From an uncultured bacterium (GTDB taxonomy: Bacteria > Patescibacteriota > Minisyncoccia > Phycocordibacterales > UBA2100), in assembly GCA_903858755.1 (NCBI GenBank), contig CAIOKC010000027.1:2192-66191 (forward strand): a DNA stretch of 64,000 nt, given 5' to 3'. The number at the start of each line of letters is the position of its first letter. The first letter of the stretch is position 1. The notes under the pieces were generated by a model. It saw only the letters and a program-made list of their open reading frames with translations. It searched no databases and was not told where the DNA came from. The translations under genes and the position numbers were made by a program. Positions 21,890 through 58,306 of this stretch are shown one piece after another.

Positions 21890-21906
21890 GGTTTTTGCCA
21901 ACCGTT

Positions 21907-22021
21907 CGGGAGAGGCAGACGCCAATGAACTCGTTGGTGATCCTCGGGTTGTTCCTGTTCACGTTCGCGCCGTCTCGATCGAAGTTGCCGACATACACGA
22001 GGTTGCCGTCGGAATCACGCC
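21907..22021 (-). repeat. DGR template repeat (TR)
   Basis: A 115-nt repeat homologous to the C-terminal coding end of the gene at 22280..24253. Of 20 mismatches, 18 fall at adenines of this copy on the coding strand. AAC-rich: NFDRDGANVNRNNPRITNEF. Confidence 0.8.
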
Positions 22022-22212
22022 TGCCGTTTGGCTCGGAGCCATCTGTGTAAGACCGCTGCGGATCCGAAGACCAGGCTGCGGCCTTGTGGGGTATACGATG
22101 TGCGCGATCACCCCCGTATCAGACTTCCGCGCCAGTTCCAAGCCAAAGCATGGTTGTATGGCGACCGGCATCCGTAAACGCCGGTTCATGAGCCATGCCT
22201 ATCATAGCAAAA

Positions 22213-22242
22213 ATTTTTCGGATGCATCGGCTCTAACCGAGC
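22213..22242 (-). terminator. GC hairpin plus T-run about 40 nt downstream of the VR/target stop codon
   Basis: GCATCGGCTC-GGTTA-GAGCCGATGC followed by ATCCGAAAAATTTTT on the minus strand. Confidence 0.45.
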
Positions 22243-22279
22243 CGATGCGACTCAAAAGGCAAAACACAAGGCACAAAAA

Positions 22280-24253: not shown

Positions 24254-24669
24254 ACTTGTTCGATGAGTCCCACCTTTTCCCGGACGGAGAAGCCGCTTGT
24301 TTCTATTTTCTCAAGATCACCAACGCTCACTAGAACAACAAAATGGGTGTGAAGAGGATCGAACTGTGCAGCCTTGTATTCCATTGTTTCTTTGTCCATC
24401 AGCTGCACCATGCCGCCCCGCTCGGTGTATTGCGCGATGAAATCGTACCACTGTTTCAAGAGCGGATGAGAAATCGTGGCGACCACGGACTTTCCGGCTT
24501 GCATAAGATCGAGAGCATCAACCGGTGAACTGGTTCGGGTAAAGCCCGCATCCACGAGTACTCGCCCCGCATCAATCAGGTCCGTGTATTCGTCGCAGAC
24601 GATGAGAGCCGCCTCTTTTTGCTTCTGCACATATCCGATAAATTCGGACAGACTGTTAGAATTCGTCAT
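24250..24669 (-). CDS. Small hypothetical protein coupled between the vWA and AAA+ genes
   Basis: Its stop overlaps the AAA+ start (ATGA). It shows no recognisable motifs and has a possible small alpha/beta fold. Start is ATG 24669 or TTG 24687. Confidence 0.45.
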   Translation of the reverse strand: MTNSNSLSEFIGYVQKQKEAALIVCDEYTDLIDAGRVLVDAGFTRTSSPVDALDLMQAGKSVVATISHPLLKQWYDFIAQYTERGGMVQLMDKETMEYKAAQFDPLHTHFVVLVSVGDLEKIETSGFSVREKVGLIEQV

Positions 24670-26812
24670 ACCGCTCGATTGCGTCAAGTATAAGGTCTGC
24701 CAGCTTTTCCGCCATCTCCTCTACGCTCACATTCGCTATGCTGTTTGGGTAGTATTGCCGGACGTGCTCGGTGCCGCGTCCTAGCCCGAGGCCGATGAGC
24801 TTTTGGTCGGTTTCCGCTTCAATGCGCTTCACGACTGATTCCAGGTCATATTGCGGTCCCCTGCGGTGAGGGGAAGGGACAGGAAGACCGTCTGATATTG
24901 GAATAAGGAACTTCTCACTTGCATCCGCCTGCGCAAGCCGTTTCGATGCCTCCGAGAGTGCCCACCCGTCGTCGTTCCATCTCGCATGGCCCGTCTTCAC
25001 TTCTTGCAGCATGCTGCCCATGTTCTCACGCACTGCGTCGGAAAGCGGAGCGCTGAATCTGCGGTATTCTCGCAGCTCATCGTGAAAACCCAGAATCTCG
25101 GTTTTTATCGAAAGCCGGTTGAGCGCTTCGGTGAGCGCTACCGCGCCTTGGAATGCGGCGCGAATCTTGTCTCCGCGAGACATGGAGCCGGAGAGGTCCA
25201 CAAGGAGCGTAAAGGCATGGTCTTTTTCGATCGGCTTGTCGCGCCTTTGCCACGCACGGCTTTTTGGCGCAGGAACGTCTTTGGCGATCTCTTGAATGCG
25301 TTTCTGTATGCGGATGCGGGGACCGGACTTCTTGCCGGGCTCCCATCCGCGAGCTTTGCGGGCACGGAATATGTTGCGCAAATCGTTTTCGAGGCGGTTG
25401 ACGACATCCGCGACTTCCCGCAATGCTTCGTCGTATGCGTCTCTTTTGCCTTCGAGAATATCCCGTATCTGGTCTTGCACGCTCGATCGGTCGAATCCTT
25501 CGAGCGGATCGCGGAGACTGGTCGTATCTGTATCTACTGGTTGTTTTCTTTCCGCCACTTGATCTGAAAGTTTACCCTTCAGTTTCTCACCGAGCTTGTC
25601 CTCGATATCCCGAATTGCTTGCCTCGCCTTTTCTTCGAGTTCGCGTCTCTTCTCTTCCGGCAACGATTCAACGTACTCTTTGATCTTTTCTTTCGTCTCG
25701 GGCGAAAGCAAATCCATATCGATCACAACATCGTTGCCGCCTTGCTTTTCGTCTTGATTTGATCGCTTGCCCTGAGCTTGTCGAAGGGCTTCGCGTATCG
25801 CACCCTCGATTTCCTTTTGCTGATCCGGCGTCAGGTTGTCTTTCAATTCCTGCGGCAAATTCGGTTGTCCTTGTCCGCCTTCGCCCTGCTGCATTTCCTG
25901 TATCGCTTTCTGCGTACGCTCGTCTTTCATATCCTCGTCGACGAGCCTCTTGTACTCCGGCCAGATATTGTCGCGGTTGATCTCGTATGAGCGTTTCGCG
26001 TACGCTTCAATCGTCGCTTCGCTTTGATCGGCCTCGTCTTTCGACGGATAGCGCCACCAGGAATCCTGCGCGGCTGAGAGCGTTTTCTGCACGACCGCTT
26101 TCACATCGTCGGGGAGCGTCTTGTCGATCTCAAACTCTTTTCCATGCACTTCGCGGAACCACTGTTTGATGTATTCGAGCCCTGCTCGCGCGAAGCGGGG
26201 CGTGAAACCCAATTTTTTCTTCGTTTTTTTCATTTCAGCCTCGAACTCCTGATCGAGCGTGTATGTCGCGTCGCGGTCGGCGGAGAGCGCAGGATACGCC
26301 TCGGTGATGAAATTGTTGTCGCGAGGATCTTCGATCGCGTTGGACATGAACGCAAACCCCGGTTGACGCCACACGTCGTCGGGAATAAAACTCGTGCGAC
26401 TAATGCGACGGTGCCCTCCTTCATGCGCCGTCACCCAGCGGGAGTACGAGAGCGGCTTTTTGAGCAAATCCTTCGGGTCGACCTTGATGTGGTTGTCCTT
26501 GAAGTTCCAGTGCCAACCCGCGCCCGGACGATTCAGAAGCACGGGAATCTCGAAGTCCTTGCCGATAAAGTACGCGATGGACGATAGAACGCGCTGCTTG
26601 TACCTGATCTCTTGTCGCTGCGACTCGTTGAATCCGGCAAGTATCTGTTCGTCCTCGTTGCGATTTGGTCCCTCCTGTCCTCGCGGTCTGCGCGGTCCCA
26701 TTGCTTCGAGACGGTTCAAGCCTTTCATGGGCGAATTGTGGCACATCAAAAGCCCCTCTGACAGCCGGTATGGGATAACCATCAACATTGCTCTTTGAAA
26801 CGGCTGTTGCAA
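24656..26812 (-). CDS. vWA (von Willebrand factor A) domain protein with N-terminal HEGGH zincin-like motif and Lys/Glu-rich coiled-coil
   Basis: C-terminal vWA domain with MIDAS DLSGSMS. N-terminal WVTAHEGGHRR (HExxH). Central charged low-complexity region. Start is TTG 26812 or ATG 26788. Confidence 0.75.
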   Translation of the reverse strand: MQQPFQRAMLMVIPYRLSEGLLMCHNSPMKGLNRLEAMGPRRPRGQEGPNRNEDEQILAGFNESQRQEIRYKQRVLSSIAYFIGKDFEIPVLLNRPGAGWHWNFKDNHIKVDPKDLLKKPLSYSRWVTAHEGGHRRISRTSFIPDDVWRQPGFAFMSNAIEDPRDNNFITEAYPALSADRDATYTLDQEFEAEMKKTKKKLGFTPRFARAGLEYIKQWFREVHGKEFEIDKTLPDDVKAVVQKTLSAAQDSWWRYPSKDEADQSEATIEAYAKRSYEINRDNIWPEYKRLVDEDMKDERTQKAIQEMQQGEGGQGQPNLPQELKDNLTPDQQKEIEGAIREALRQAQGKRSNQDEKQGGNDVVIDMDLLSPETKEKIKEYVESLPEEKRRELEEKARQAIRDIEDKLGEKLKGKLSDQVAERKQPVDTDTTSLRDPLEGFDRSSVQDQIRDILEGKRDAYDEALREVADVVNRLENDLRNIFRARKARGWEPGKKSGPRIRIQKRIQEIAKDVPAPKSRAWQRRDKPIEKDHAFTLLVDLSGSMSRGDKIRAAFQGAVALTEALNRLSIKTEILGFHDELREYRRFSAPLSDAVRENMGSMLQEVKTGHARWNDDGWALSEASKRLAQADASEKFLIPISDGLPVPSPHRRGPQYDLESVVKRIEAETDQKLIGLGLGRGTEHVRQYYPNSIANVSVEEMAEKLADLILDAIERYDEF

Positions 26813-26903
26813 AAAAGGTGTAAGAATGCACGCACATCCACCGTCTCCCTCTACGCGCGGAGCAACATCCGCGTCATTACCAAATTAGCAACAATAAAAT
26901 ACC

Positions 26904-27419
26904 ATGAACACTCTCAAAAAGATTCTCGGGACGACTACGCTCGCGGTGCTTGTGTGCATGCCAATCGCGGCTTCGGCTGATTCTATCGGCGCACGCGGGG
27001 GCACAGGCGTCTTCGTCGGAGAAAACGGCGTCGTTCACGTACTTGGCGCACAAGTATCTGCGATTTCAGGCAATGTCATCAGTGCATTCACCTCAATCGG
27101 CAACGTCGTGATGAATTGGACGATCAATGCATCGAGCGACACGAAGATAGCCGGCGGCGGCTCGAAAAGCGCGACCGTCGCTGACCTTCACGTCGGCGAT
27201 AAGATCGCTTTTTCCGGCACCAATAGCACGAGCTCGCCTCTCACGATCTCGGCTCGCAAGATTGTCGACATCACGACCACTCCGCCGCGTACGCATAAGA
27301 CCGACACCATGAGCGACGATGAAAACGGCGACAAAAAACGCGCTTGGGGGCGCGGCTCAGGGAAATTCTTCGGCGGTCTCCACTTCGGGCTTGGCGACAG
27401 GCACGGTAAAGACGACTAA
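26904..27419 (+). CDS. Secreted hypothetical protein
   Basis: Signal peptide MNTLKKILGTTTLAVLVCMPIAASA; Gly/Ser-rich. Confidence 0.5.
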   Translation: MNTLKKILGTTTLAVLVCMPIAASADSIGARGGTGVFVGENGVVHVLGAQVSAISGNVISAFTSIGNVVMNWTINASSDTKIAGGGSKSATVADLHVGDKIAFSGTNSTSSPLTISARKIVDITTTPPRTHKTDTMSDDENGDKKRAWGRGSGKFFGGLHFGLGDRHGKDD

Positions 27420-27435
27420 TCGCTCCGACCCACAC

Positions 27436-27460
27436 AAAAAGCCCCTCGAAGGGGCTTTTT
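27436..27460. terminator. Bidirectional rho-independent terminator
   Basis: AAAAAGCCCCT-CGAA-GGGGCTTTTT between convergent genes. Confidence 0.7.
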
Positions 27461-27535
27461 GTCCGTAATTCGCGTTCTCAGGCGATTCTTTTTCTCTGTC
27501 GACTACATAGCCTCTCGTACTCCAAGTGTGCCAAA

Positions 27536-27769
27536 TCAGCGTTCAAGCGAATTCCCCCGCACAAACGGCTCGCTGATCCAGCCGATATCGTCGAAAAAAG
27601 GAGCAAGGACGCCGAGCGCGATCGTCGCAAGTATCGCAGAGCCGACAAAAAACCCGATCCCATACACGATGCCAGCGACGAACATGCGTGAGAGCGAGTT
27701 CTGCCGCGCGACCTGCTTATTGAGCAAGTCCAGGTGCTCGATCACTTTCGCATCATTCGCTGGTTCCAT
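27536..27769 (-). CDS. Small membrane protein
   Basis: 77 aa with one or two hydrophobic helices. Confidence 0.4.
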   Translation of the reverse strand: MEPANDAKVIEHLDLLNKQVARQNSLSRMFVAGIVYGIGFFVGSAILATIALGVLAPFFDDIGWISEPFVRGNSLER

Positions 27770-27781
27770 ACGGGAAGTATA

Positions 27782-28258
27782 TCAGCCGACGACCGCGCGC
27801 TCGATACTCATCGGCTCTACGGGGCGATCATTCGCATCGGTCGGCGTGCTCTCTATCGCCTCCACTATCTCCATGCCGGAGACCACTCTGCCGAAGACGG
27901 TGTGCTTGGTGTCCAAAAAGTTGTTCGGAGCGACGTTGATGAAGAATTGGCTGCCGTTGGTATTTGGTCCTGCGTTTGCCATAGCGATAGTCCCCACTTC
28001 ATTCCGATTGTTCGCATGAATCTCATCGTCACATTGGTAGCCAGGTCCGCCCGTCCCCCAGCGCGCTTTCTGGGCATCATCTTTGCTCTGCGGATCGCCG
28101 CCCTGGATCATAAAATCCTTGATCACGCGGTGGAATTTGGTGCCGTCGTAAAACCCTTCGCGCGCGAGCTTCGCAAAATTCGCAACCGTATTCGGCGCAT
28201 CTTTCTCCATCATCTCGATCCCGATCTCCCCTTTGTTCGTATGCAATGTGATTTTCAT
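27782..28258 (-). CDS. ppiB: Peptidyl-prolyl cis-trans isomerase, cyclophilin type
   Basis: Cyclophilin signatures: FHRVIKDFMIQGGDP and MANAGPNTNGSQFFI. Confidence 0.9.
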   Translation of the reverse strand: MKITLHTNKGEIGIEMMEKDAPNTVANFAKLAREGFYDGTKFHRVIKDFMIQGGDPQSKDDAQKARWGTGGPGYQCDDEIHANNRNEVGTIAMANAGPNTNGSQFFINVAPNNFLDTKHTVFGRVVSGMEIVEAIESTPTDANDRPVEPMSIERAVVG

Positions 28259-28288
28259 ATGGAGAGCAGTGTACCAGGCTTTTTCTCT

Positions 28289-29296
28289 TTATTGCCCAGC
28301 ACTGGAAGATCCTCGCACGAAATCTTTCAGGTCGTCTCGTATTTTTAGTGCTATGTGCTTCGCGAAAGAGACCGGCACGGCATTGCCTATCATTTTGTAG
28401 CCGTCTGCCACGTTTTCGTATTTAAGTATAAACGTGTCGGGAAATGCCTGGATTCGCGCACACTCGCGGACCGAAAGCCGCCTGTATAGACGCTCCTTAC
28501 CGGGCACAAAAATCCGCTTGTTTTGTTCGACAAATTTCATCTTCGGAGCTTGCGGATGGATCGGGGCGTGTCGCCCTCCGGCTTGAATCGTGAACGAAGG
28601 CTCGTCCCACCCTCGAACACGGTTGCGGGACATGTAGATGGTGGAAAACCCGCCCGTCATATATTCGTGATTTGGTACCTTCAGCGACCTGTTTGCTTTG
28701 TTGGACGGTTTTGCGGGCACGGCATCTTTCAAATCGGAGATCGCATCGCCGAGGACAGGTCTTTCCGAAAGCGGTCGCGGGGGAATGAAATCTCTTCCGA
28801 CTTTCTTGTGATAGCCGACGATAATGACGCGCCACCGCTCTTGCGGCACTCCGTAGTCGTTGGCATTCAACAGGTTGTAAGTGACGCGGTACCCCACGTC
28901 GCTAAAACTCTTCAGGATATCCTCGAAAGCACTTTTATGACGCGGATGCAGAATGCCCGAGACATTCTCGGCTAGGAAAAACAGCGGCTGCTTGTCGCGA
29001 AGAACGCGGATGTACTCATAAAAAAGCTTGCCTCTGCTGTCGTGTATCCCCCTTCCCGCTCCCGCTTCGCTCCAACTCTGGCATGGCGGACCCCCTATGA
29101 TCCCGACTGCTGCGGGCACATCTTCAGATGGCACGTCGATAATACTGCGCTTGTCGAGATGCGTATGGGGGAAATTGTGCTCGAATGTCGACCATATAGA
29201 AGGATCGTATTCATTCGCCCAGTCCACATCAAAACCCGCCTGCTCGAAACCGAGGTCGAGACCGCCAGCTCCCGTAAAGAGTGAGACGAGTTTCAT
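28289..29296 (-). CDS. DNA (cytosine-5)-methyltransferase
   Basis: Motif I FTGAGG, motif IV GGPPCQSWS, ENV (LAENV), QERWRVIIVG. Start trimmed to ATG 29296, which overlaps the stop of the upstream gene (ATGA). Confidence 0.85.
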   Translation of the reverse strand: MKLVSLFTGAGGLDLGFEQAGFDVDWANEYDPSIWSTFEHNFPHTHLDKRSIIDVPSEDVPAAVGIIGGPPCQSWSEAGAGRGIHDSRGKLFYEYIRVLRDKQPLFFLAENVSGILHPRHKSAFEDILKSFSDVGYRVTYNLLNANDYGVPQERWRVIIVGYHKKVGRDFIPPRPLSERPVLGDAISDLKDAVPAKPSNKANRSLKVPNHEYMTGGFSTIYMSRNRVRGWDEPSFTIQAGGRHAPIHPQAPKMKFVEQNKRIFVPGKERLYRRLSVRECARIQAFPDTFILKYENVADGYKMIGNAVPVSFAKHIALKIRDDLKDFVRGSSSAGQ

Positions 29297-46039: not shown

Positions 46040-46085
46040 CCCCTTGGATTCCGGCATAGTGCCAGAGTGTCCAAGGGGACAATGC
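46040..46085 (-). terminator. Rho-independent terminator downstream of the methyltransferase gene
   Basis: On the minus strand: GTCCCCTTGG-loop-CCAAGGGGTC followed by TTTCGTTTTG. Confidence 0.5.
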
Positions 46086-46288
46086 GCCCGCCGAGGGCGG
46101 GCGCACAAAGTTGCAATCGGTCAGTTGCGGGAGCCAAGCCGGACGCCATCGCGCCAATCGTCGTCGAGTGGCCACGTGTAGACGTTCCACTCACCGCAAA
46201 TATTTGATTGCTTCTTGGTGCTTGCCAGCGTTCCGCAAGTCGTCGGCAATATTCATCATCCCCTGAGCTTCGATGTCTCGCATATCGA

Positions 46289-49200
46289 TTACAGGGCAGT
46301 TTCAACAATCCTAACCTCCTCGTCTGTAAGGTCGTAAAGCTTATACACGAGCTGATCAATTTGCTTTTCATAAACTTTAACCTCTTCTTGTTTCTTGAAA
46401 TTCTCCAAATAATCGCCGGATGTGGTAATTGCCAAGATTTTATCAACGATTTCAATAAAGGGCTTTTGTTCAGTTTCTGAAACTCTTTTAATTGGGACTT
46501 CTGATAGTGGTTGCTGATAAAGCTCCAACATTTCTCCCTTTCTTTTGCCTCGCTGATACAACCAAAAATAATAGAGCCTAGAATTGAGCAGTGCCAACAC
46601 ATATTTAAGCGAAAATGACTTATCTTTCTCTGTAATAAAATATACATCCGCGCTCGCATACCAGTCGCTCGCGTTATATCCAAACGTATTGCTCGTACTG
46701 CGTTGGGGCGCGACTATTTTTGCGCCTTCAAATATGTCTTGTTGTCTAGATCTATGAAGGTCAAACCAGCGATACGCATATTGGGAAACAATCGCCTCAA
46801 ATTTGGAAAGGTGTTTGAGAATATTCGGGTATGTTTCTATATTCTTAATTGTTTCGCCGTTTGAGTAAATAACGGCAGAGCCTGTTTTATCTTGGGTATA
46901 CCACTTGTGCACGTCAGAGTTCTTAAACCATGGCTTCAAAATTGTTTTCTCGTCATCAGTTAAATTGATATTTTGCATTTCTTCCTCACTTAGAATAAAG
47001 ATACCGTCTCCAATGCGTGCGCTCACTTTATGTTTTTCAAGGTGTTTCCTGGATACTTTATCAGCGCCGGTAACAATTCCTTGGTTTGCATTGCAAATCG
47101 TCCCCAAGGCCTCACCCTGGCTCTTTAGCTTATTTAATGTCGTTTGTATTGGATTGCGACTTTCTATTGAGGTTCCCGATAGCCGAATATTGTAATTATC
47201 GCCATCGTATAAATCGTCTTGAGCTACTCTAAAGTATTCGGTTTTTTCGTCTTGGCCACCAACAATTCTTTCCAAGATAATCGAAGTGGCATCACCAGTG
47301 CGTTTGGTAATACAAGTTTCGGCTATAACCTCTTTATAGTGCCCTTTACTCAAAATACTCACCATGTTGTGCTGGCCTAGGGCAGATTTGAAAACCTTGA
47401 GTTCGTTAAAGTTAACTAGCTTTTTGACTGTCGCCCTATTTTTAAAATCCTCTCGAAGCTTTCGTGCACCCAATGCTGTTGGATAGTAATTCGTCGTTAT
47501 ATACGCCATCACGCCGCCGTTGCATAAGTAATCCAGAGCTGTGTGAAAGAAAAAGTAAAAAAGGTCCATCTTGCCTTGATAATATCTCTTCCCTAAGGGA
47601 GAATTCTTGATTTTCCTAAACATGTCCTTGTGTCCCTTCTCCCCAATATACGGGGGGTTCCCGATAACAATATCGAATCCCCCCTTTCTATAGACTGCGG
47701 GAAAGAAATACCTGGTGTCGAAAAAACCAACCGGCTTGTTTTGGAAAATATTTTCGTAACTTCCCCATAGCTCGTTTATTCGCATGCGTTCATCGGTCTC
47801 CGCTTCATTCTTCTTCGCCAACAATCGTTTATGATTTCTATCTTTGATTCCGCTAAATGACTGTACGATACTCTCCAGCTCTTTCTTAGTTTTTTCACTA
47901 ATAAGCTGTTGCAATTTTCTTGCGGTGTCCAATTTGTGCACTTGGTCGACCGGCGCGAAGTACTCGTCAATAAGCTCCCCAAGAGCCGCAGCGAATTCAT
48001 CACCGAACAACGGACCTTCGTGCACCGGTGGCTTTATGAGCGTATTGGCGCAAACAAATTTGAAATCTAGATTCGGTAGCGGCTCAATTCCTCTGTTCGG
48101 AGCACTATCATCGACTTGTTGATCCACAACGAGTGTCAAAAAGCATCGTAGCCGCGATATATCAGTTGCGACGGGTTGAATATCTATACCGTGAATACAT
48201 TCCCTGATGACCCCGAGTTTTCGAACATATGTAAGGTTATGTTTTTGAAGTTGCCTGCGAGCCTCCGCAGGAAATTTGTTGAGATAGATTGAACAATCGG
48301 GGTCAAGAATCCCTAGCATATGTACCATGCGCTGAAGCACGCCTATTGGAAATGCGCCGGAACCACAGGCTGGGTCTAAGACAGCAGCATTATGAATAGC
48401 GTCAACGAGTACTTTCCTGTCATTGATAGAAAAGGGATACTGAACATCATCCTCCAAATCGTACGATGAAAGCACGCGTAATTTCTCTTCAGGTATTCCG
48501 GTCTTTGTCTTTAGGTGAGCAACGAGCGACTCTTCAACCATGAAGTCCACAATTTCTCTGGGTGTGTAAAAACTTCCTGTCGCTTTTCGCGCACTTGCGC
48601 CTGTTTCCGGGTTTACTTCTGCCAAAAGGTTTTCAAAGATACGACCGAGCATCTCAGGGTCGATTGAAAGCTCGGTATCGATTGACGTATTTTCGTCAAT
48701 TGTGAAGTTATATTCCTCAAAAATACCGAGCATCTCCATAAACCACCCATCCGGAACAGCCACAACGCCGCGTCGCTCACTCAACCCGGTAGTGCGGTTA
48801 AATTTGTGATTATCCTCGGCGTGGTCCTGAAACAATCCTCCATTGAGAAACGGGACCTTGTTGAACAATTCTGAATGCGCGAAAAATGCGGGCCGAGAAC
48901 TTGGAGGCTTATTGAGCACCTCAAAAAAGAGAGGTGCGCACAGGGAGTGGTAATAATCCGAATTCTTTGAGACGGCGGCAACAGAAAGAAGCTCGTCAGG
49001 GATTAATGGAACACCCTGACTACCTTTCTTCTGTTTAAGAAACCAGCAAAAAACTAACCGGCCGATGAGCCGAATTGCAAAATTTGCATACACTGTGTCA
49101 TCCGCGCTTCCAAGTTCAAGGGTCCTCTCGTAAGTTTCTGCGCGCCTGCCTTCTCCTCTTGTGCCCCCAACGAGTTTTGAATATTGAGCGGCTATTCGCG

Positions 49201-49702
49201 TATAAAACTCCTTACTCACAACCGCCAAAGAGAACTTGTTTTCGAGGTCCTTAGTTGTAGTGATGATACCAGTTAGCATCATGCTCGGCGTTAACACTTT
49301 TACGTCTGGTCCAAGAAGATAGGAGAACCTGCGCGGATTTGAAATGGTCTCCCTGACACCCTCTTTCGTCCTAGTTACCTTTGTTGTAATTAGTGAAAGC
49401 CGCCATTCTTTGGAATCATCCGAGACATAGGCTACCAGAGCATTGGACCGCGCATGACTTTTGAGCACCCCGTAAGTACTCTTTGTAATTTCTACGCGAG
49501 CACTTAGTGATGAGTCAGGCTTAGCAATAAACACGACCAAATCTAAATCGCTGCCACTAGCCTCAGCGACTTGTTGAATTGACTTGAATCCAGACCTAGG
49601 CTCCTCCCGTTTTTTGCTCACGGCTACACTCGGAATGAGCTGCTCAACAAACGCAAGAAAAGCTTCCTCGTTAAATGCGCCAGCAAAAAGCGGGTTTATC
49701 AT
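46289..49702 (-). CDS. Large N6-adenine DNA methyltransferase (NPPY; Eco57I/PglX-like) with N- and C-terminal extensions
   Basis: Motif I LDPACGSGAF and motif IV VIGNPPYIG; 1137 aa; AT-rich codon usage unlike the flanking DNA. Confidence 0.8.
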   Translation of the reverse strand: MINPLFAGAFNEEAFLAFVEQLIPSVAVSKKREEPRSGFKSIQQVAEASGSDLDLVVFIAKPDSSLSARVEITKSTYGVLKSHARSNALVAYVSDDSKEWRLSLITTKVTRTKEGVRETISNPRRFSYLLGPDVKVLTPSMMLTGIITTTKDLENKFSLAVVSKEFYTRIAAQYSKLVGGTRGEGRRAETYERTLELGSADDTVYANFAIRLIGRLVFCWFLKQKKGSQGVPLIPDELLSVAAVSKNSDYYHSLCAPLFFEVLNKPPSSRPAFFAHSELFNKVPFLNGGLFQDHAEDNHKFNRTTGLSERRGVVAVPDGWFMEMLGIFEEYNFTIDENTSIDTELSIDPEMLGRIFENLLAEVNPETGASARKATGSFYTPREIVDFMVEESLVAHLKTKTGIPEEKLRVLSSYDLEDDVQYPFSINDRKVLVDAIHNAAVLDPACGSGAFPIGVLQRMVHMLGILDPDCSIYLNKFPAEARRQLQKHNLTYVRKLGVIRECIHGIDIQPVATDISRLRCFLTLVVDQQVDDSAPNRGIEPLPNLDFKFVCANTLIKPPVHEGPLFGDEFAAALGELIDEYFAPVDQVHKLDTARKLQQLISEKTKKELESIVQSFSGIKDRNHKRLLAKKNEAETDERMRINELWGSYENIFQNKPVGFFDTRYFFPAVYRKGGFDIVIGNPPYIGEKGHKDMFRKIKNSPLGKRYYQGKMDLFYFFFHTALDYLCNGGVMAYITTNYYPTALGARKLREDFKNRATVKKLVNFNELKVFKSALGQHNMVSILSKGHYKEVIAETCITKRTGDATSIILERIVGGQDEKTEYFRVAQDDLYDGDNYNIRLSGTSIESRNPIQTTLNKLKSQGEALGTICNANQGIVTGADKVSRKHLEKHKVSARIGDGIFILSEEEMQNINLTDDEKTILKPWFKNSDVHKWYTQDKTGSAVIYSNGETIKNIETYPNILKHLSKFEAIVSQYAYRWFDLHRSRQQDIFEGAKIVAPQRSTSNTFGYNASDWYASADVYFITEKDKSFSLKYVLALLNSRLYYFWLYQRGKRKGEMLELYQQPLSEVPIKRVSETEQKPFIEIVDKILAITTSGDYLENFKKQEEVKVYEKQIDQLVYKLYDLTDEEVRIVETAL

Positions 49703-52700
49703 AGACGATGCTCTTGTGTAAATAGAAGGAGGTTCGCAGCCTTTGATTCGATATTTTGCTTGTCCAGACTTACTTTCACCTGGTGCTCCGGTGCTATTTC
49801 CATGACTTGTTCGACAACTTGATCAGGAGTGAGAGTCGTATCCTTCGCGACTTTTATTACAGCTTTAAGCTGCCCATCCGAAAGGTCATCAAGATCACTA
49901 ACAACCTTTATTAAGTCGTCACAATAATTTGAGTATTGTGATTCTCGAACACTTCTTAATATGTGCACAACGTCGGTGCGATTTCTCGACATCTGTCCCA
50001 TTGCAGGTTTTTCGAATAACTTTTCCTTTAGCGTATTGAAGACGATGCCAAATTGATCGTCAGCCTTTTCTCCCACCTCCTCACGACCTGCTGCAAAGTG
50101 ATTCAAGACATTTTCCGCATCCACCAATTTGGCCTCCCCGTTGTTTTCAAGAGCATATATTTTATTCTCTCCCCGAATTCCTACTCCGACCCCCAATTGA
50201 GCACTGCGATTTTTTCTTACTATGCGAGCCCGCATGGGTATTTTCCTTGCCAATTCAACAATCTCACTATCGTGCTGTGCTTGCTCGTATGCCTCTCGAT
50301 GTGGAGTATCCCAACTCTGTTCTTCTGTCGTCGCTCTCTTAAATTCGTCCACAAAAAACGATTCTGGGTTCTCGTCTTCCGTGAGCGTTCGAGTGTCATT
50401 ACCGACTACAGAATTAAATATCTTCATTTTGAGCGTGGCCACACCTCTGATGTTTGTCTCTGTTTCACCGAGTTCAGTGGGAAAATAGTTGTCAATAAAA
50501 AGCTCATCGAACATTTTCATGTTTATACGATTAATGCGACCCACGCGTTGTATGACGCGGGTTGGGTTATACGGAATATCATAATTAATCACGCGGCCCG
50601 CCCTATGCAAGCTAATTCCCTCACTCAAAGCATCGGTAGCAACAAGTACCTTGAAATCATCGGCCTGTCTCTCCGGGGGTAGCCCGGCATCGAAGTTTTT
50701 TCTCACAATTTGACGCTCCGTCCGACCATTTTGAGAAGTATAGAAAATTGTTGCGATTCCCGCGCGCTTTAATGCCTCACCGACATAATTGACGGTATCT
50801 GCATACATACTAAAGACCACGATTTTTCTTTTCGGATCCCTTTCAAGGTGGTGCTGTATATCAGAAATAAGTTGATGGAGTTTCGGATCTGGCAGAGACG
50901 CAAAAGGTGAATGCGCACCGAACCACTTATCGTAGATATCTTGGAGAACGGACAAGTCGCGTCTAACTTCTGATACGAACTTCTCGTTGAGATCGTCAAC
51001 GCTAACATAAGCGATCTTTCGACTATTCGGAACGGCCGTGATATCAATTGCAATTTGCTCTGTCATTTCTGCGTCCTCTGCATCTTCTTCCGGTATCTCA
51101 TCGGGTGCCGGAATATATGCCTTCTTTGATATTGGAACGAGGTGGCGTTGCTCCACCCATTCAATGATTTTCTTATGCGAATCAATTACAGTCTGGAGGG
51201 TGCTCTTAAACGCGGCTCTGGAACTCTCAAACCGCATTACTAAAAGCTTTCGCATAAATGATGCGACGTTCTCCTGGGCTGTTCGAATATCCTCCAATTC
51301 GGGGTACTTTTCAGTAAAATTTCCTATATCGCGAGCATAAGTTGTTGGCCTGTATCGGGCACCGGTTAGCCCACCTTCAGTTCTTGAGTCCGGCACTATC
51401 CGCCCTACCGTTTCGAGGTAGATTTCGGTGAATTCGCCCAATTCGTATTCTCGAATCTTTGGGTCGCTCATCTTGGCAAATTCAATCCCTTGCGCATTCA
51501 AATCCTCCCGATATCGTGTAATATTTTCTAGGTCAATTCTTGAGCGCCTGATGATGATTGGTTCGATTAGCCTTCGTAATTCGCTGGCTATAGCATCACG
51601 CCTCATATCCAACTCTTGCCGCTGCTCTGGTGTCATTGTCGTGACTGCGTTAGAGCGTCGAAGTTCTTTATATGCCTTCGCAAGTTCGGTAAATTTTAAA
51701 GACAGGTTATCTACTGTTCGCAGGGTGGCAGCGCCAGGGGTTTGAAAGAGTTTGATAAGGGCAAAAATATCCTTTGGATCATTGTTGAATGGTGTGGCAG
51801 AAAGTACCAATACTTTATTTCCAACGTGACTGCGGGTTAACTGGTGGAGCAACTGATAGTCTTGCGTACTTTCATTTCTATATCTGTGCGCTTCATCTAG
51901 AATAAATAGAAGGGGCTCTGCGGTACTTTTGTATCTATCGTACGCCTCTTCAATCTTTCCTGAGCTAAAGATTCGCACACCCGGTAGCCGAAATTCCTCG
52001 GCGTAGTCCTCCCACATTGGAATAAGGTGGGGCGGGGCAATAATAACTGGCTTCAAGTCGGAGCAATTCGCTGCGACTGTACTTGCGATAATACTTTTTC
52101 CTAGCCCGACCACATCTGCGATAATAGCGCCATCGTAATTTTTTATTCGTGCAATTGCCATTTTTACGGCATCGATCTGATATGAAAGGTCAATATATTG
52201 GCCGCGAGTTGCTCGCGATGCACCAATCACATCGAGCTTATATTCAGCACCAAATATCTCATGTAGTAGTCGGACGTACATAAGGTACGGCGTCGGGACT
52301 ACGTTCATCCAAAGTTCGTCCCGAATCTTATTTAAAAACATGTCTGATTTGCCTTTTTCCTGAATGACAATGTTACGGGCGTCTGACCATCGAATTGAAA
52401 ATTTCTCGCAATACTCTTTGTACTTTTCCTGGGAGTCGAACGCCTCGTCGATCTCTTGCTGTCCAATGAGGCCATTATAGGTAAAATTGCTTGAGCCCAT
52501 AAAAACTTTGCCCGAATTGCCATTGTGAATTACGTAGTATTTGCCGTGCGCCTGTTCTTCAGTCATTTTAATCTCAAGCGATCCATCTTCGAGCTTCTTT
52601 TCTAGAATTGAATACGCTTCTTGTGCCTCCGGCGCGTCGAATATTGATGTTTGATTTGCGAGCTTCTTTATACCCTCGCCGAATGCGCTAACTCTTTCCT

Positions 52701-53004
52701 GCTTTGATTGCGGAACGCTTCTAGGCTGATACGGATCGAGATTTACAGAGGACTTTTTGGTTGTTTCAATTATTAAGGTCGGTATGGCATCTGGATCAAT
52801 ATACGACCCGACCAAGATACGGACCTTGAGTTTGTCGAGTTTCTTAGCCAATAGCTCAAACCCACAAAGGTAAAAATATCCAACCTCAATATCAAGTCCG
52901 GTTGTATTGTCTCCAATCGCGTCAGATATGGCTCGGTAAAGATTGTTTTGCTTGCTATTATCGATGATTTTATTTCCCGAAACCATTGCAGTAAATAATC
53001 CCAC
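49699..53004 (-). CDS. PLD-like (HKD) nuclease domain fused to SNF2-family helicase
   Basis: N-terminal HGKYYVIHN...GSSNFT HKD motif. SNF2 ATPase with GLGKS Walker A and DEAH (ILDEAHRYRN). C-terminal helicase lobe (VLVATDALSEGISLH...QRVGRINR). Overlaps the methyltransferase gene by 4 bp. Confidence 0.8.
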   Translation of the reverse strand: MGLFTAMVSGNKIIDNSKQNNLYRAISDAIGDNTTGLDIEVGYFYLCGFELLAKKLDKLKVRILVGSYIDPDAIPTLIIETTKKSSVNLDPYQPRSVPQSKQERVSAFGEGIKKLANQTSIFDAPEAQEAYSILEKKLEDGSLEIKMTEEQAHGKYYVIHNGNSGKVFMGSSNFTYNGLIGQQEIDEAFDSQEKYKEYCEKFSIRWSDARNIVIQEKGKSDMFLNKIRDELWMNVVPTPYLMYVRLLHEIFGAEYKLDVIGASRATRGQYIDLSYQIDAVKMAIARIKNYDGAIIADVVGLGKSIIASTVAANCSDLKPVIIAPPHLIPMWEDYAEEFRLPGVRIFSSGKIEEAYDRYKSTAEPLLFILDEAHRYRNESTQDYQLLHQLTRSHVGNKVLVLSATPFNNDPKDIFALIKLFQTPGAATLRTVDNLSLKFTELAKAYKELRRSNAVTTMTPEQRQELDMRRDAIASELRRLIEPIIIRRSRIDLENITRYREDLNAQGIEFAKMSDPKIREYELGEFTEIYLETVGRIVPDSRTEGGLTGARYRPTTYARDIGNFTEKYPELEDIRTAQENVASFMRKLLVMRFESSRAAFKSTLQTVIDSHKKIIEWVEQRHLVPISKKAYIPAPDEIPEEDAEDAEMTEQIAIDITAVPNSRKIAYVSVDDLNEKFVSEVRRDLSVLQDIYDKWFGAHSPFASLPDPKLHQLISDIQHHLERDPKRKIVVFSMYADTVNYVGEALKRAGIATIFYTSQNGRTERQIVRKNFDAGLPPERQADDFKVLVATDALSEGISLHRAGRVINYDIPYNPTRVIQRVGRINRINMKMFDELFIDNYFPTELGETETNIRGVATLKMKIFNSVVGNDTRTLTEDENPESFFVDEFKRATTEEQSWDTPHREAYEQAQHDSEIVELARKIPMRARIVRKNRSAQLGVGVGIRGENKIYALENNGEAKLVDAENVLNHFAAGREEVGEKADDQFGIVFNTLKEKLFEKPAMGQMSRNRTDVVHILRSVRESQYSNYCDDLIKVVSDLDDLSDGQLKAVIKVAKDTTLTPDQVVEQVMEIAPEHQVKVSLDKQNIESKAANLLLFTQEHRL

Positions 53005-53047
53005 AAATCTTCATGTTTGGGAATCACGGCACAAAACCCGCCTACGG

Positions 53048-53079
53048 GCGGGTTTTGTGCGACGGGCGTGTCCGTTCGG
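53048..53079. terminator. Perfect 14-bp bidirectional hairpin
   Basis: GCACAAAACCCGCC-TACG-GGCGGGTTTTGTGC. Confidence 0.5.
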
Positions 53080-53179
53080 GCGCTATCTCGGCGTCGCAGT
53101 TCGAATCTTACTGAACCTCAATCGTACCTCCTGCCAATCAAGCTCTACCTACTAGGACACTTTGTCAGTTAGCCACTTT

Positions 53180-53503
53180 TTACTGCTCGTTGCAGACTGT
53201 ATTGAATCTGTTTCTCAAGTCAGTCTCTTCTTGCAGCCTTGCGTCTCGGTTTTCAGAAGAAATATGAGCAAATATGTGTGTCGCCCCATTTTGCCTGGTG
53301 CAGTTCCATTTGTGATGAGAAGGCGTGCATCGTGTGCTCAAGTCCTCACATTCACCGATATATACTGGTGTCCAGCTGTTCTGTTGCAGACTCTTGGCAA
53401 AAATATAATTACCGGGCTTAGCGACAAATGGTTCATTTATCGGATACCCCCAGTAACGGTAACTTTTGCCAGATTTGCCGTGCCAATCCATTTCTACTGC
53501 CAT
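53180..53503 (-). CDS. Small GIY-YIG-like nuclease domain protein (tentative)
   Basis: PGNYIFAK...WTPVYIGECEDLSTR resembles the GIY...YIG...R/E core; 107 aa; low GC. Confidence 0.35.
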   Translation of the reverse strand: MAVEMDWHGKSGKSYRYWGYPINEPFVAKPGNYIFAKSLQQNSWTPVYIGECEDLSTRCTPSHHKWNCTRQNGATHIFAHISSENRDARLQEETDLRNRFNTVCNEQ

Positions 53504-53540
53504 AATCTGTATTCATTTCTCAATTAGTAATTCGACCGAA

Positions 53541-53582
53541 GCAAAAACCCAAAGCCGCATCGGTTGCGTCTTTGGGTTTTTG
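53541..53582. terminator. 14-bp-stem hairpin (GCAAAAACCCAAAG / CTTTGGGTTTTTGC)
   Basis: Inverted repeat with a 14-nt loop. Confidence 0.4.
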
Positions 53583-53978
53583 CTCAAACTCTCGCTTGGG
53601 TAATTACCGGGGGCGCAGGTTACTCGTGTCCGTAGGCATTCGTAACCCCCGATTTTCAGAAACAGATTCTCACTTCTGCTTTCATTTTACCAAGCGCAGA
53701 GAAAATCAAAAAGTGGATAAGTGCCCCGTCCCGCCGCCCATCCCTTTTTGGAACCCACCCCCGCGAAATGGATGAGGATGCCTGTCCGCCTTTGGCGGAG
53801 AGGATTGGCGGCGGGGCGGGGGTCGAGGGCGCGGCGTACTCGCGCGCCCGAGAGAGTCAGCACGGAGTCGAATCGTGACACAGAGTACAAAGCCACCACG
53901 CGCGCGGAGCGCGCGAGATTAGGATTCACTCTGGTAATAGGTTCGAGCGGAGTATAATAGGGACTCAAACTTCGTTTG

Positions 53979-54051
53979 AGCCGATGTCCGGGATTGAACC
54001 GGAGACCTCGTCCTTACCAAGGACGTGCTCTACCAACTGAGCTACATCGGC
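53979..54051 (-). tRNA. tRNA-Thr (GGU)
   Basis: Cloverleaf GCCGATG...anticodon loop TTGGTAA...T-loop TTCAATC...CATCGGC. Confidence 0.85.
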
Positions 54052-55851: not shown

Positions 55852-56102
55852 TGCTCTTTAACACTTTTTCAAGAGCGTTTCCCTACAAGGACGAAAAGAG
55901 AACCTTGACTCTCTTCGTCCCGACTTGCGCGAGTGACGGGACTCGGCTAAGCGCTCACTCGTCGCCGTCGCTCCTCGTTCCGCTTAGCCATGCTCGCCCC
56001 GCTCCATCTGCTGATGGAGCCTCCGGCGCTCGCCTTCGAGTCCCGTCTCGCTGTAAAACAGTAAGACCCCGATGCTTCGCATCGAGGCCTAACTGTTTTA
56101 AG

Positions 56103-56176
56103 CGCGAGTGACGGGACTCGAACCCGCAGCCTCTCCCGTGACAGGGGAGTGCTCTAACCAATTGAGCTACACCCGC
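56103..56176 (-). tRNA. tRNA-Asp (GUC)
   Basis: GCGGGTG...anticodon loop CTGTCAC...T-loop TTCGAGT...CACTCGC with G73 discriminator. Confidence 0.85.
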
Positions 56177-56217
56177 ATGAGCGAACGAGCGAAGAATACC
56201 GCGTCTGAGAGCTTTTT

Positions 56218-56490
56218 TCAATTGCGGCGGCGCTTCCTGTGTCCCCTACCGACACAGTATCGAAGCGTATCGATACCGGAGACGAGCGCCCAGACGCTGT
56301 TGGTGATCACAAACGGCCACACATGATTCGACGCCGCATACCAGAGCAATCCGAGACTCGCGACGAAATTCACTCCATCATACCACACACTCTCGCTCGA
56401 GAGCTTGCCGTACTCGTTGAGGACGAATGCCGAGAGGACAAGAAGCGCCGATCCGATACCCAACAATTCAAGAGGTTCCATAACCGCCAT
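56218..56490 (-). CDS. Small membrane protein (tentative)
   Basis: Two hydrophobic helices; lies between two tRNA genes. Confidence 0.3.
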   Translation of the reverse strand: MAVMEPLELLGIGSALLVLSAFVLNEYGKLSSESVWYDGVNFVASLGLLWYAASNHVWPFVITNSVWALVSGIDTLRYCVGRGHRKRRRN

Positions 56491-56500
56491 TTTAGCACTG

Positions 56501-56573
56501 TGCCGGCGGCAGGGATCGAACCTGCGACCTAGCCCTTATGAAAGGCTCGCTACTACCACTGAGCTACGCCGGC
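56501..56573 (-). tRNA. tRNA-Met (CAU), elongator type (or tRNA-Ile2 if lysidinylated)
   Basis: GCCGGCG...anticodon loop TTCATAA...T-loop TTCGATC...CGCCGGC with G1-C72 paired. Confidence 0.8.
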
Positions 56574-56637
56574 TTACCTTGGAAAACTACTATATTTCAG
56601 TCCTTCAATCAATTCGTGGATACGGTACACTACTCTC

Positions 56638-56814
56638 ATGTGGGACACGATCCTCAATATCAATTCGATCCTGACCATCATCGCGAGTGTCTACGGCATC
56701 TACGCGATCGGCTCCGGGATTCTCGCGTGGGACTGGAAGCAAATCGCGCTCGGCGTGTTCGTCGCCGCGTTCTTTCTGACAGCGCAGATCGTCATCGGAG
56801 CATTCGCGGATTGA
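56638..56814 (+). CDS. Very small hydrophobic ORF (58 aa; not in the supplied track)
   Basis: ATG 56638; MWDTILNINSILTIIASVYGIYAIGSGILAWDWKQIALGVFVAAFFL... Confidence 0.25.
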   Translation: MWDTILNINSILTIIASVYGIYAIGSGILAWDWKQIALGVFVAAFFLTAQIVIGAFAD

Positions 56815-56861
56815 TGTAATTTGCGCGTGCATTCCTTCCATAGTAGAGTAAACGCCTTGCT

Positions 56862-56933
56862 AGCGGGGTGGAGCAGGAGTAGCTCGCAAGGCTCATAACC
56901 TTGAGGTCGCGGGTGCAATTCCCGCCCCCGCAA
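56862..56933 (+). tRNA. Initiator-like tRNA-Met (CAU)
   Basis: aGCGGGG...CTCATAA...CCCCGCA with unpaired positions 1-72; resembles E. coli tRNA-fMet. The T-loop (TGCAATT) is atypical. Confidence 0.6.
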
Positions 56934-57077
56934 CAAATACAGAAAGGGCTCCCGCTTGGGAGTCTTTTCTGTATTCGATGCCGCGGGGAGCGAGGCAACT
57001 GCTTGCCTCGCGTGCGGAATTGCACGGCAGTGCGCTGTGCACGCACCGCACTGCCGCGGTCCCGGAGGGAAATTCCC

Positions 57078-57226: not shown

Positions 57227-58306
57227 CTATATTTTCCGATATCGTGTTGCCCGACCAAGTCCGATTCGCTTGATCAAGCCTCGCTTCAGCAGCGTTTCGA
57301 GCGCTTTCCCGACGGTGGGGAGAAGCAGCCCTGTCGCGGCGGCTATCTCAGCCCTGCTTCCTTCGTTTGCTTTTGCGAGGTATTCGAATACCGCCTTTTG
57401 CTTCGGAGAGAGCGCATCTTCTTGTGCCTCTTTGTCGACAAACGCGAGCGCTTTCTCGGCCTGTTCTTTGACGACCGACAAAAAGAAATTGAGCCACGGG
57501 GCTATCGACTCTCCCTCGCCGACTGGATTCTTTTGCGATCGGAATGTTTCTTGCGAGGCGCGCAGAGCGAAATAGTACTCCTCCTTTCGCGACTCAACGA
57601 TTTGTTCGTGAGAGACGTACTCGATAAACAAGTACCCAGATCGCAACAAGAGCAGGTTTGTGAGTACGCGGGAAAGGCGTCCGTTGCCGTCCTCAAACGG
57701 GTGTATTTTTAGAAACTCAATGATAAAGTTTGCGATGATGAGGAGCGGATGGAAACGTTCTTTCTCCAAGGCCTCGTGCGCCCACTCGATAAGCTCAGTC
57801 ATTTCTTTGCTGGTAAGATACGCGGGCGTCGTCTCAAACATGATGTGCGCCACTTTTCCGTCCTCTCTCAGCACACCGACGATATTCTCCTTTCGTTTCC
57901 AGTCGCCGCGATGCAGGTCATCTTTCGTGGAGTACTTGAGAAGTTCCTTGTGCAATGATTTTATCAGCCCTTCTCGAAGCGGCATGGTTTTGTAATTTTC
58001 GAAGACGTGTTGAAGCGTTTCGAGGTATCCCTGCACCTCTTGCGAATCGCGGTCGGCAAACCGTTGTATTTTCATTCCTTGCATGATCTTTTTGACCTCC
58101 TCGTCGGAAAGTCTTGACCCCTCGATACGGGTGGAGGCGCCTGCCGATGTTATGAGTACTGATTTTCGGAGCGTCGTTATGGCTTCAGGTGTCATGCGCA
58201 GTCCCGCTCGAAAAACTCCGCGCATTTCATCGATTGCCGCAAGGAGTGCGACAATGCGAGGGCTTGGGTGTTCGATCCTGTGGTCAAATGTACCGTGAGC
58301 GGGCAT
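57227..58306 (-). CDS. Fic-family protein (AMPylase-type, class II with N-terminal inhibitory SxxxEG helix, C-terminal wHTH)
   Basis: HPFEDGNGRLSR Fic motif; STRIEGS inhibitory motif; C-terminal winged helix. Confidence 0.85.
   Translation of the reverse strand: MPAHGTFDHRIEHPSPRIVALLAAIDEMRGVFRAGLRMTPEAITTLRKSVLITSAGASTRIEGSRLSDEEVKKIMQGMKIQRFADRDSQEVQGYLETLQHVFENYKTMPLREGLIKSLHKELLKYSTKDDLHRGDWKRKENIVGVLREDGKVAHIMFETTPAYLTSKEMTELIEWAHEALEKERFHPLLIIANFIIEFLKIHPFEDGNGRLSRVLTNLLLLRSGYLFIEYVSHEQIVESRKEEYYFALRASQETFRSQKNPVGEGESIAPWLNFFLSVVKEQAEKALAFVDKEAQEDALSPKQKAVFEYLAKANEGSRAEIAAATGLLLPTVGKALETLLKRGLIKRIGLGRATRYRKI

Follow-up and report, generated by a model that had tools for sequence, protein, structure and literature searches.

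A two-gene module lies in a low-GC insert

The window analysed here is the whole 64,000-nucleotide (nt) stretch of contig CAIOKC010000027.1 from an uncultured bacterium of the Patescibacteriota. It contains a low-GC insert in which two overlapping genes encode a PLD-SNF2 protein, named R, and an adenine methyltransferase, named M. This pair is the subject of the present study. The insert and its two main genes, with sizes in amino acids (aa), are:

46250-53600, no strand: low-GC insert, a foreign segment in a 56% GC chromosome, delimited by GC, GC at third codon positions (GC3), and sharp edges
49699-53004, minus strand: PLD(HKD)-SNF2 nuclease-translocase gene (R, gene 1), open reading frame (ORF) of 1101 aa from a GTG
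46289-49702, minus strand: methyltransferase/specificity subunit gene (M, gene 2), 1137 aa, ATG start

As assessed by base composition, the insert (46250-53600) has a GC content of 0.444 vs 0.556 for the rest of the window. Outside it, the GC of 1-kb segments has a standard deviation of 0.023 and a minimum of 0.495, whereas the maximum inside is 0.476, so that the two sets show zero overlap and uniform GC is ruled out. GC3 is 0.44-0.47 in the genes of the insert and 0.61-0.71 in host genes, and the GC edges are sharp on both sides (∼46250-46290 and ∼53560-53700). A first-pass annotation of the sequence had described a low-GC, horizontally acquired island between flanks of ∼60% GC. The low GC of the island is borne out by these values, but the flanks come to about 56%. 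The GC and GC3 anomaly also upholds its acquired nature, and the insert is of foreign origin.

The two ORFs, and the 4-bp overlap between them that had been described, were verified. Gene 1 and gene 2 share an ATGA stop/start overlap (CTATGATAA), with the TGA of gene 1 within the ATG of gene 2, and the M gene is translationally coupled to the R gene. The start of gene 1 is probably the ATG at 52986 (Met7), giving a protein of 1095 aa, because a database copy (P0001) is 100% identical to gene 1 from Met7 and its relatives also begin at this seventh codon.

R combines a single PLD nuclease domain with a SNF2 motor

The domains and motifs of R, numbered on the 1101-aa ORF, are:

52360-52893, minus strand: single PLD/HKD nuclease domain, aa 38-215 (PLDc_2 at aa 50-206, Pfam 1.5e-8)
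52525-52548, minus strand: catalytic HxK, HGKYYVIH, aa 153-160
52480-52497, minus strand: GSSNFT, aa 170-175
51505-52197, minus strand: SNF2 ATPase N-lobe, aa 270-500 (Pfam SNF2-rel_dom at aa 366-493)
52093-52107, minus strand: GLGKS (Walker A), aa 300-304
51886-51897, minus strand: DEAH, aa 370-373
51781-51801, minus strand: SATPFNN (motif III)
50365-50904, minus strand: helicase C-lobe, aa 701-880 (Pfam Helicase_C at aa 714-828, 9.9e-18)
50527-50550, minus strand: motif VI, QRVGRINR
49702-50364, minus strand: C-terminal domain, aa 881-1101, a small β-sheet and a helical bundle

Pfam agrees with the first description of this protein as an N-terminal HKD/PLD motif followed by a full SNF2 ATPase (GLGKS, DEAH, and helicase C lobe); only its length of 1101 aa gives way to the likelier shorter start. 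The motifs are intact and highly conserved. Among 27 relatives of R, H153, K155, G170, S171, and N173 are invariant, and GLGKS, DEAH, SATPFNN, and motif VI (QRxGRxxR) are invariant or nearly so among 27-115 relatives. The usual Asp position of the PLD signature is a His in most members of the family, and there is one HKD motif per chain. The last 220 residues fold confidently in the predicted structure (pLDDT 81).

When R was compared with curated models, its best PADLOC matches included a generic "HKD+Snf2" model (117 bits), which stems from a survey of CRISPR-accessory genes, and its best curated matches were the DrmD, BrxHI/II, DpdE, and HmaA helicases. A Pfam ResIII match is marginal (24 bits). 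A phage/prophage family of the PHROG collection (phrog_26785) matches residues 12-886 with an E value of 1e-89. Deposited phage genomes contain no close relatives of R, only distant helicase matches of which the best is 25% identical. Prophages or satellites may also carry members of the family.

M is a γ-class methyltransferase of probable Type IIG/IIL descent

M is composed of the following parts:

49298-49702, minus strand: N-terminal domain, aa 1-135, which sits where the nuclease domain of a Type IIG/IIL enzyme would be
48653-49297, minus strand: MmeI-like helical spacer, aa 136-350, strongly conserved
48830-48847, minus strand: LNGGLF within the helical spacer
47333-48652, minus strand: γ-class N6-adenine methyltransferase core, aa 351-790, with a variable insert at aa 561-670
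48350-48379, minus strand: motif I, LDPACGSGAF, aa 442-451
47648-47659, minus strand: motif IV, NPPY, aa 682-685
46292-47332, minus strand: C-terminal target-recognition domain (TRD) of the TaqI_C type, aa 791-1137, hypervariable between relatives

Pfam identifies an Eco57I methylase (aa 501-771), a TaqI_C domain (aa 971-1071, 1.9e-12), and an N6_Mtase segment (aa 350-390) in M, and both LDPACGSGAF and NPPY are invariant among its relatives. M is assigned to the γ class because motif I precedes NPPY and the TaqI-like TRD is C-terminal. Pfam and the order of the motifs are therefore in line with the γ-like N6-adenine methyltransferase of 1137 aa that had been recognised from LDPACGSGAF and NPPY. 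Compared with solved structures, a profile of the M family matches CamA (6e-51), BseCI (1e-40), and two of the three enzymes with which a comparison had been advised, BREX BrxX/PglX (6e-13) and the helical spacer of MmeI (5hr4 residues 120-264, E 7e-9), the latter followed by TaqI and DrdV. The same profile has no match to the Type ISP structure at E ≤ 0.001. The best PADLOC models for M, which complement the generic model found for R, are Type IIG restriction enzyme-methyltransferases (2e-66), one of which aligns back to residue 84. In the search for homologues of M, the 90% cluster of the window protein is represented by a 180-aa fragment (P0248/P0247), so that the self-hit is absent and the best listed match is 72% identical.

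The N-terminal domain of M has few constrained positions. Among 67-116 relatives, aa 1-135 contain no conserved Asp, Glu, or Lys, and the sole invariant residues are R101, S103, and R125. One candidate ExK position reads I-A-K (F-I-A-K) in the window protein, and the fold match of the domain to restriction endonuclease domains is weak. Residues 1-135 probably represent a degenerate nuclease. In our best reading of the sequence, M derives from a Type IIG/IIL (MmeI/Eco57I-like) lineage and has kept the nuclease position without conserved catalytic residues. The large extensions of M had both been taken for a presumed TRD. This holds for the C-terminal one, which contains TaqI_C, but not for the N-terminal one, which is an MmeI-like spacer behind a domain lacking conserved nuclease residues. 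The conserved PLD, ATPase, and methyltransferase motifs suggest that purifying selection acts on all activities of the pair.

R and M are strictly paired across bacterial phyla

We scanned one genome per species for relatives of R, and analysed pairing and gene neighbours in the best 80 loci. Relatives of R occur in at least 537 species-level genomes. The best 80 loci span >10 phyla and comprise Patescibacteria (16), Bacillota (∼21), Bacteroidota (∼21), and members of the Elusimicrobia, Planctomycetota, Spirochaetes, Gammaproteobacteria, Actinomycetota, Dehalococcoidia, Zixibacteria, and Thermotogota. In 76/80 loci, R is directly followed on the same strand by a methyltransferase of the M family, and the other four end at a contig edge. 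The R and M codons overlap or abut in most paired loci, and the order of the pair also holds in L001 and L004 (related loci are designated by L numbers) and on a plasmid of Parabacteroides distasonis. M is an obligatory partner of R. Clustering of the neighbouring ORFs in the best 80 loci revealed no conserved third gene. The compact two-gene nuclease-helicase/methyltransferase system that had been envisaged for the window is thus strongly backed by strict pairing in 80 loci.

The P. distasonis plasmid (NZ_OY725763.1, L089, 63 kb) carries a complete pair at positions 21864-28527 of the record, where the two genes bear no other labels than "SNF2-related protein" and "N-6 DNA methylase". P. distasonis is a gut bacterium that can be cultivated, as can two further carriers, Hoylesella loescheii An865 and Phocaeicola paurosaccharolyticus JCM 15092. 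The plasmid copy is flanked by helix-turn-helix, "RNA-binding domain-containing protein", TIR-domain, and AAA genes, a setting that looks like a defence island. Proteins 75-82% identical to those of the window are found in Magasanikbacteria, Saccharibacteria, and Zixibacteria. Such identity across phyla, together with the GC anomaly of the insert, indicates recent horizontal spread. The window copy is unexceptional within a large and widespread family and is not a one-off.

Several genes recur near the pair. Large serine recombinases are the most frequent neighbour (9/80 loci, e.g. L015:1582-3261), which fits mobility. A Cas4/DUF2779 nuclease gene lies a few kb downstream in five loci (L001:21535-23016, L004:17783-19297, L034, L035, and L062), and this recurrence may be a coincidence or a loose association. 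Some Bacteroidota loci have an additional gene (RhuM, Bro-N, DUF559, DUF2442, or KilA-N) that separates R from M, at the following positions:

L063:11279-12271, L080:3300-4304, L055:11187-12023, L056:4075-4914, L081:4134-4499, L060:11569-11895, and L073:4817-5074: genes inserted between R and M

Genes of these types are common inside Type I restriction-modification and defence operons.

The specificity end of M is exchanged independently of R

Covariation within the pair was assessed in 57 complete pairs, by comparing identity to the helicase of the window with identity in each part of M. Helicase identity correlates with that of the N-terminal domain of M (r = 0.92), the helical spacer (0.78), and the motif-I half (0.74), and not with that of the NPPY region (r = -0.05) or the TRD (r = 0.15). 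The mean identity of the TRD between relatives is 17%. For L001 and L007, the identity of M is 83-85% in the motif-I half and only 22-31% in the C-terminal third, and L021 and L044 show the reverse pattern. The r values and these opposite patterns indicate that the specificity end is exchanged by recombination, whereas the front two thirds of M travel with the helicase. They suggest that the swappable NPPY and TRD end is a natural cassette system for retargeting specificity.

Contigs from the same population show breaks in the methyltransferase gene at two recurring positions. In L087, which comes from another assembly, 51 nt of unrelated in-frame sequence (L087:1-51) join the window at 47838 (residue ∼621, in the variable insert). 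The contigs of L085 and L086 end inside the gene at window positions 49362-49367 (residue ∼113). These breaks hint at co-existing mosaic alleles in which the front or the back part has been swapped, the L087 fragment being too short for certainty. A programmed inversion of the TRD, as in Milman et al. 2023, was set aside, since the methyltransferase gene shares no inverted repeats with the sequence around it.

R and M probably form a two-subunit restriction-modification system

We propose, with a probability of roughly 0.6, that the pair is a two-subunit ATP-dependent restriction-modification system acting like a split Type ISP enzyme. The single TRD of M would read a short DNA sequence, and its γ-class NPPY methyltransferase would mark host DNA at adenine. 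R would supply what M lacks, i.e. a SNF2 double-stranded-DNA translocase and a PLD/HKD nuclease. On an unmethylated site, M would recruit or license R, which would then move along DNA by ATP hydrolysis. Cutting would be carried out by two R protomers, either as a standing dimer or as two converging complexes, because a single PLD domain provides no more than half of an active site. In the single-HKD proteins Nuc, BfiI, and SauUSI, there is half an active site per chain and the dimer completes one. Single-HKD chains also dimerise to form one active site in the structure of MANTIS MtsD, and dimeric PLD and SF2 (superfamily 2) motors are the restriction effectors in both SauUSI and MANTIS (bioRxiv 10.64898/2026.09.23.753747). 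Should M, like its monomeric relatives, modify a single strand of an asymmetric site, restriction is expected to vary with the number and orientation of sites. Such hemimethylation and orientation dependence, as in Type III, Type ISP, and MANTIS systems, are plausible because the closest solved relatives of M are monomers with a single TRD.

This proposal is directly supported by the structure of the two genes, their conserved and intact motifs, their pairing, the lack of any other conserved partner, the foreign origin of the insert, and the swapping of the specificity end. A mobile, defence-type context supports it as well, as seen in the foreign GC, the cross-phylum identity, the RhuM, Bro-N, DUF559, and KilA-N genes inserted between R and M, and the TIR and AAA neighbours on the plasmid. 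It would entail that M and R form a physical complex, that cleavage depends on ATP, and that the pair acts against phages, along with hemimethylation and a dependence on site orientation.

Several points weigh against the proposal. In about half of the wider M family aa 59-61 carry a Glu, in some members within an E-x-K-like triplet, and some relatives of M may keep a residual nuclease. The covariation of the helicase with the N-terminal part of M may reflect co-inheritance rather than contact. The model of the C-terminal domain of R gave no informative fold match in a structure search, and R has no sequence or profile match at E ≤ 0.001 to SauUSI or any solved PLD-helicase. In vitro cleavage by the analogous MANTIS nuclease is still to be demonstrated (bioRxiv 10.64898/2026.09.23.753747). 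Finally, the literature searched, which leaves out most subscription-journal papers and REBASE, contains no experiment on any member of the family, and no name or dedicated model for the two-gene system.

The relatedness of the two proteins to BREX and DISARM components raises the question whether the pair works by exclusion, with M marking self and the SNF2 motor blocking phage replication or remodelling DNA without site-linked cleavage, the PLD domain being a back-up or acting on other substrates. DrmD, BrxHI/II, DpdE, and HmaA are the best curated matches of R, the M profile matches the PglX/BrxX structures (E 6e-13), and both DISARM class 1 and ARMADA II contain, as a sub-module, a SNF2 protein paired with a PglX-like methyltransferase. 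However, DrmA/DrmB, YprA, PglZ, BrxC, and DUF499 are absent here and in the 80 related loci, the curated cut-offs are all missed by a factor of at least 4, and the invariant catalytic residues of the PLD domain argue for a primary catalytic role. We therefore regard exclusion as unlikely. We give slightly less credence still to two independent systems that travel together, i.e. a self-sufficient Type IIG enzyme (M) and an autonomous SauUSI-like (Type IV) or accessory nuclease (R). Such independence is difficult to reconcile with aa 1-135 of M, which have no conserved catalytic residue and read I-A-K at the candidate E-x-K, or with the fact that the two genes are same-strand neighbours in all loci that could be assessed, in >10 phyla, and that the stop codon of one often overlaps the start codon of the other. 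The C terminus of R has no SRA-like or other reader fold, and the helicase covaries with the N-terminal two thirds of M.

A role outside defence would make M an epigenetic regulator (a phase-variable or mobile methyltransferase) and R a repair or remodelling helicase, or make the pair mainly a selfish addiction module. In keeping with this, an orphan regulatory methyltransferase is among the solved proteins closest to M (CamA and BseCI), and the module is mobile and mosaic. Nevertheless, an invariant nuclease site fused to a motor, hypervariable specificity domains, and a context of defence-island and restriction-modification type are signatures of restriction, and addiction behaviour is compatible with a restriction-modification function. 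We consider this role very improbable.

Should the pair be a split Type ISP-like restriction-modification system, it would be the simplest known coupling of a PLD motor of the SauUSI/MANTIS type to methylation-based self-recognition, achieved by two proteins without an AAA+ loader, DrmAB, or PglZ. It would also offer a tractable model for the licensing of a translocating nuclease by methyltransferase-bound sites, a question still open for MANTIS, DISARM, and BREX. As regards annotation, several hundred species at the least carry the family, among them cultivable Bacteroidota, it is also found on a Parabacteroides plasmid and in many genomes of the candidate phyla radiation, and automated tools label the methyltransferase only, as Type IIG or "N-6 DNA methylase". 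A bolder view, which we put forward tentatively and hold to be rather less probable than the proposal itself, is that the pair is a distinct and self-sufficient class of ATP-dependent restriction-modification system, now miscalled "Type IIG" and "SNF2-related protein". For CRISPR-poor Patescibacteria and for gut Bacteroidota and Clostridia, this class might be a major form of innate defence, and it might be an evolutionary bridge from single-chain Type IIG/ISP enzymes to the multi-gene DISARM, BREX-related, and MANTIS systems. On this view, the degenerate N-terminal domain of M would have been re-used as a dock or licence for the nuclease motor.

The insert is flanked by host genes and a tRNA

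Other features in and beside the insert are:

53978-54051, minus strand: tRNA-Thr(ggt), a neighbouring host gene
53180-53503, minus strand: 107-aa ORF in the low-GC segment, a small GIY-YIG-like protein

The window is chromosomal and contains housekeeping genes (RNase J, GlmS, TypA, CTP synthase, a GatA-like amidase, and LigA), and the insert is flanked by MsrB on one side and by tRNA-Thr and an HD-domain gene on the other. TypA shows 83-84% identity to its nearest named relatives, from Candidatus Kaiserbacteria and Paceibacterota, which places the host in the Patescibacteria. The tRNA-Thr gene that had been noted next to the island is indeed present, ∼970 bp from the start of the PLD-SNF2 gene. 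We set aside tRNA-targeted integration, as neither an att-like or direct repeat of the 3' end of tRNA-Thr nor an integrase was found in the window. The tRNA is therefore merely adjacent and is not evidence of an integration site. When the flanking MsrB and HD genes were looked up by exact protein, the insert was recovered in several other metagenome assemblies, at 98-100% identity. These look-ups gave only contigs that carry the insert, with no empty-site relative, and a metagenome scan with MsrB gave relatives at 54-80% identity, none of them with shared synteny, so that insertion polymorphism is not demonstrated.

The 107-aa ORF belongs to a family with 1128 cluster representatives at E ≤ 0.001 and without a Pfam model of its own. 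Its conserved residues (G-x-Y...Y-I-G...R...H...E...N) and weak Pfam matches (GIY-YIG in 6/31 members, T5orf172 in 2/31) suggest a stand-alone GIY-YIG-like nuclease. It was ruled out as a third component of the module because it is not conserved beside the pair in related loci. Directly 3' of the methyltransferase stop, at the GC transition, are two ORFs of just 30 and 42 aa (46121-46283, minus strand), which resemble the remains of a small gene that was disrupted. Three strong GC-rich hairpins bracket the units of the insert, the first separating the 107-aa ORF from the start of the helicase gene (53030-53062), the second upstream of the 107-aa ORF (53540-53584), and the third downstream of the methyltransferase gene (46084-46104). 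They are probably terminators, which a consensus terminator scan missed because the T run is lacking on the scanned side. Promoter and terminator scans gave no excess over shuffled sequence.

Further away, an AAA_5 (MoxR/dynein-like) ATPase gene and a CobT-type VWA gene, both on the minus strand and ∼400 bp apart, occupy 22280-26812. A Fic/DOC-family gene (57227-58306, minus strand) lies 3 kb beyond a tRNA cluster (tRNA-Asp, Met, and Met at 56102-56934).

Comparison with known systems

The architecture of the pair is not unknown, as comparative-genomics papers had already drawn attention to it. On comparative-genomic grounds, HKD domains fused to SWI2/SNF2 ATPases were attributed to bacterial restriction-modification systems by Aravind and colleagues (PMC3417536). 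Milman et al. 2023 listed Cj0031-like Type II restriction-modification genes with adjacent PLD and SNF coding sequences, which were left uncharacterised (PMC9881135). In principle the pair would not surprise a specialist, yet it is minimal and widespread.

The first-pass annotation had likened the pair to split Type ISP/IIG enzymes, DISARM, and BREX, and equated it with none of them, and this view stands. The DISARM class 1 systems (DrmD, DrmMI, DrmA, DrmB, and DrmC) and ARMADA II have in common with the pair a SNF2 helicase, a large PglX/Eco57I-like N6-adenine methyltransferase, and a PLD nuclease. In the pair, however, the PLD domain is fused to SNF2, and the DrmA/DrmB (YprA/DUF1998) core is missing. 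R scores 137 bits against NCBIfam DrmD (cut-off 610), and M scores 59 bits against PglX (cut-off 500). No DrmA/B, PglZ, BrxC, or DUF499-sized gene lies at 41-60 kb of the window, where the other ORFs of at least 300 aa are a thioredoxin-like gene with an overlapping ORF on the opposite strand and the Fic-family gene, and none is conserved in the 80 loci.

Type III systems (EcoP15I Mod/Res) likewise consist of a methyltransferase-specificity subunit and an SF2 ATPase-nuclease subunit, with hemimethylation of asymmetric sites expected in both cases. The pair is nonetheless distinct from a canonical Res/Mod system in methyltransferase class, nuclease type, and nuclease position. Type III Mod is a β-class enzyme with an internal TRD, whereas M is of the γ class with a C-terminal TRD. 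Res has a C-terminal PD-(D/E)xK nuclease and is encoded after mod, whereas R has an N-terminal PLD and its gene comes first.

M has the helical spacer, γ-class NPPY methyltransferase, and single C-terminal TRD of Type IIG/IIL enzymes (MmeI, DrdV, the Eco57I family, and Campylobacter jejuni Cj0031). These enzymes carry an active N-terminal PD-(D/E)xK nuclease in the methyltransferase chain, whereas the nuclease residues are unconserved in M, and M is always preceded by the gene of an ATP-dependent nuclease-motor partner. R resembles the Type IV enzyme SauUSI, in which a single N-terminal PLD domain is followed by an SF2 motor and a dimer is needed per PLD active site. SauUSI is autonomous, with its own C-terminal 5-methylcytosine reader and without a methyltransferase partner, whereas R has an obligatory partner in M and a C terminus without a reader-like fold match.

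MANTIS, Gao_RL, and Type-2 BREX-related systems share with the pair an N-terminal HKD fused to an SF2/SNF2 effector and an adenine methyltransferase that sets specificity, for restriction as well as methylation. They are defined by a DUF499 AAA+ ATPase (MtsA) and DUF3780 (MtsB) (PMC12839542; bioRxiv 10.64898/2026.09.23.753747), and DUF499 and DUF3780 genes are absent from the window and from the 80 related loci. The TRD of the MANTIS methyltransferase is nested, whereas that of M is C-terminal.

The order of functions in the pair (nuclease, double-stranded-DNA motor, γ-class adenine methyltransferase, and single TRD) is that of the Type ISP enzymes LlaGI and LlaBIII. As in these enzymes, one specificity unit is expected to serve both methylation and restriction, with cutting coupled to translocation. 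Type ISP enzymes combine the four functions in one polypeptide, whereas two ORFs with a stop between them are found in the window and 76 related loci. An Mrr-like PD-(D/E)xK nuclease N-terminal to the motor is replaced in the pair by PLD/HKD, the motor is of the SNF2 type, and only the pair has an extra N-terminal domain and an MmeI-like spacer before the methyltransferase. By analogy, the pair is best read as working most like a split Type ISP enzyme with an effector of the MANTIS/SauUSI type.

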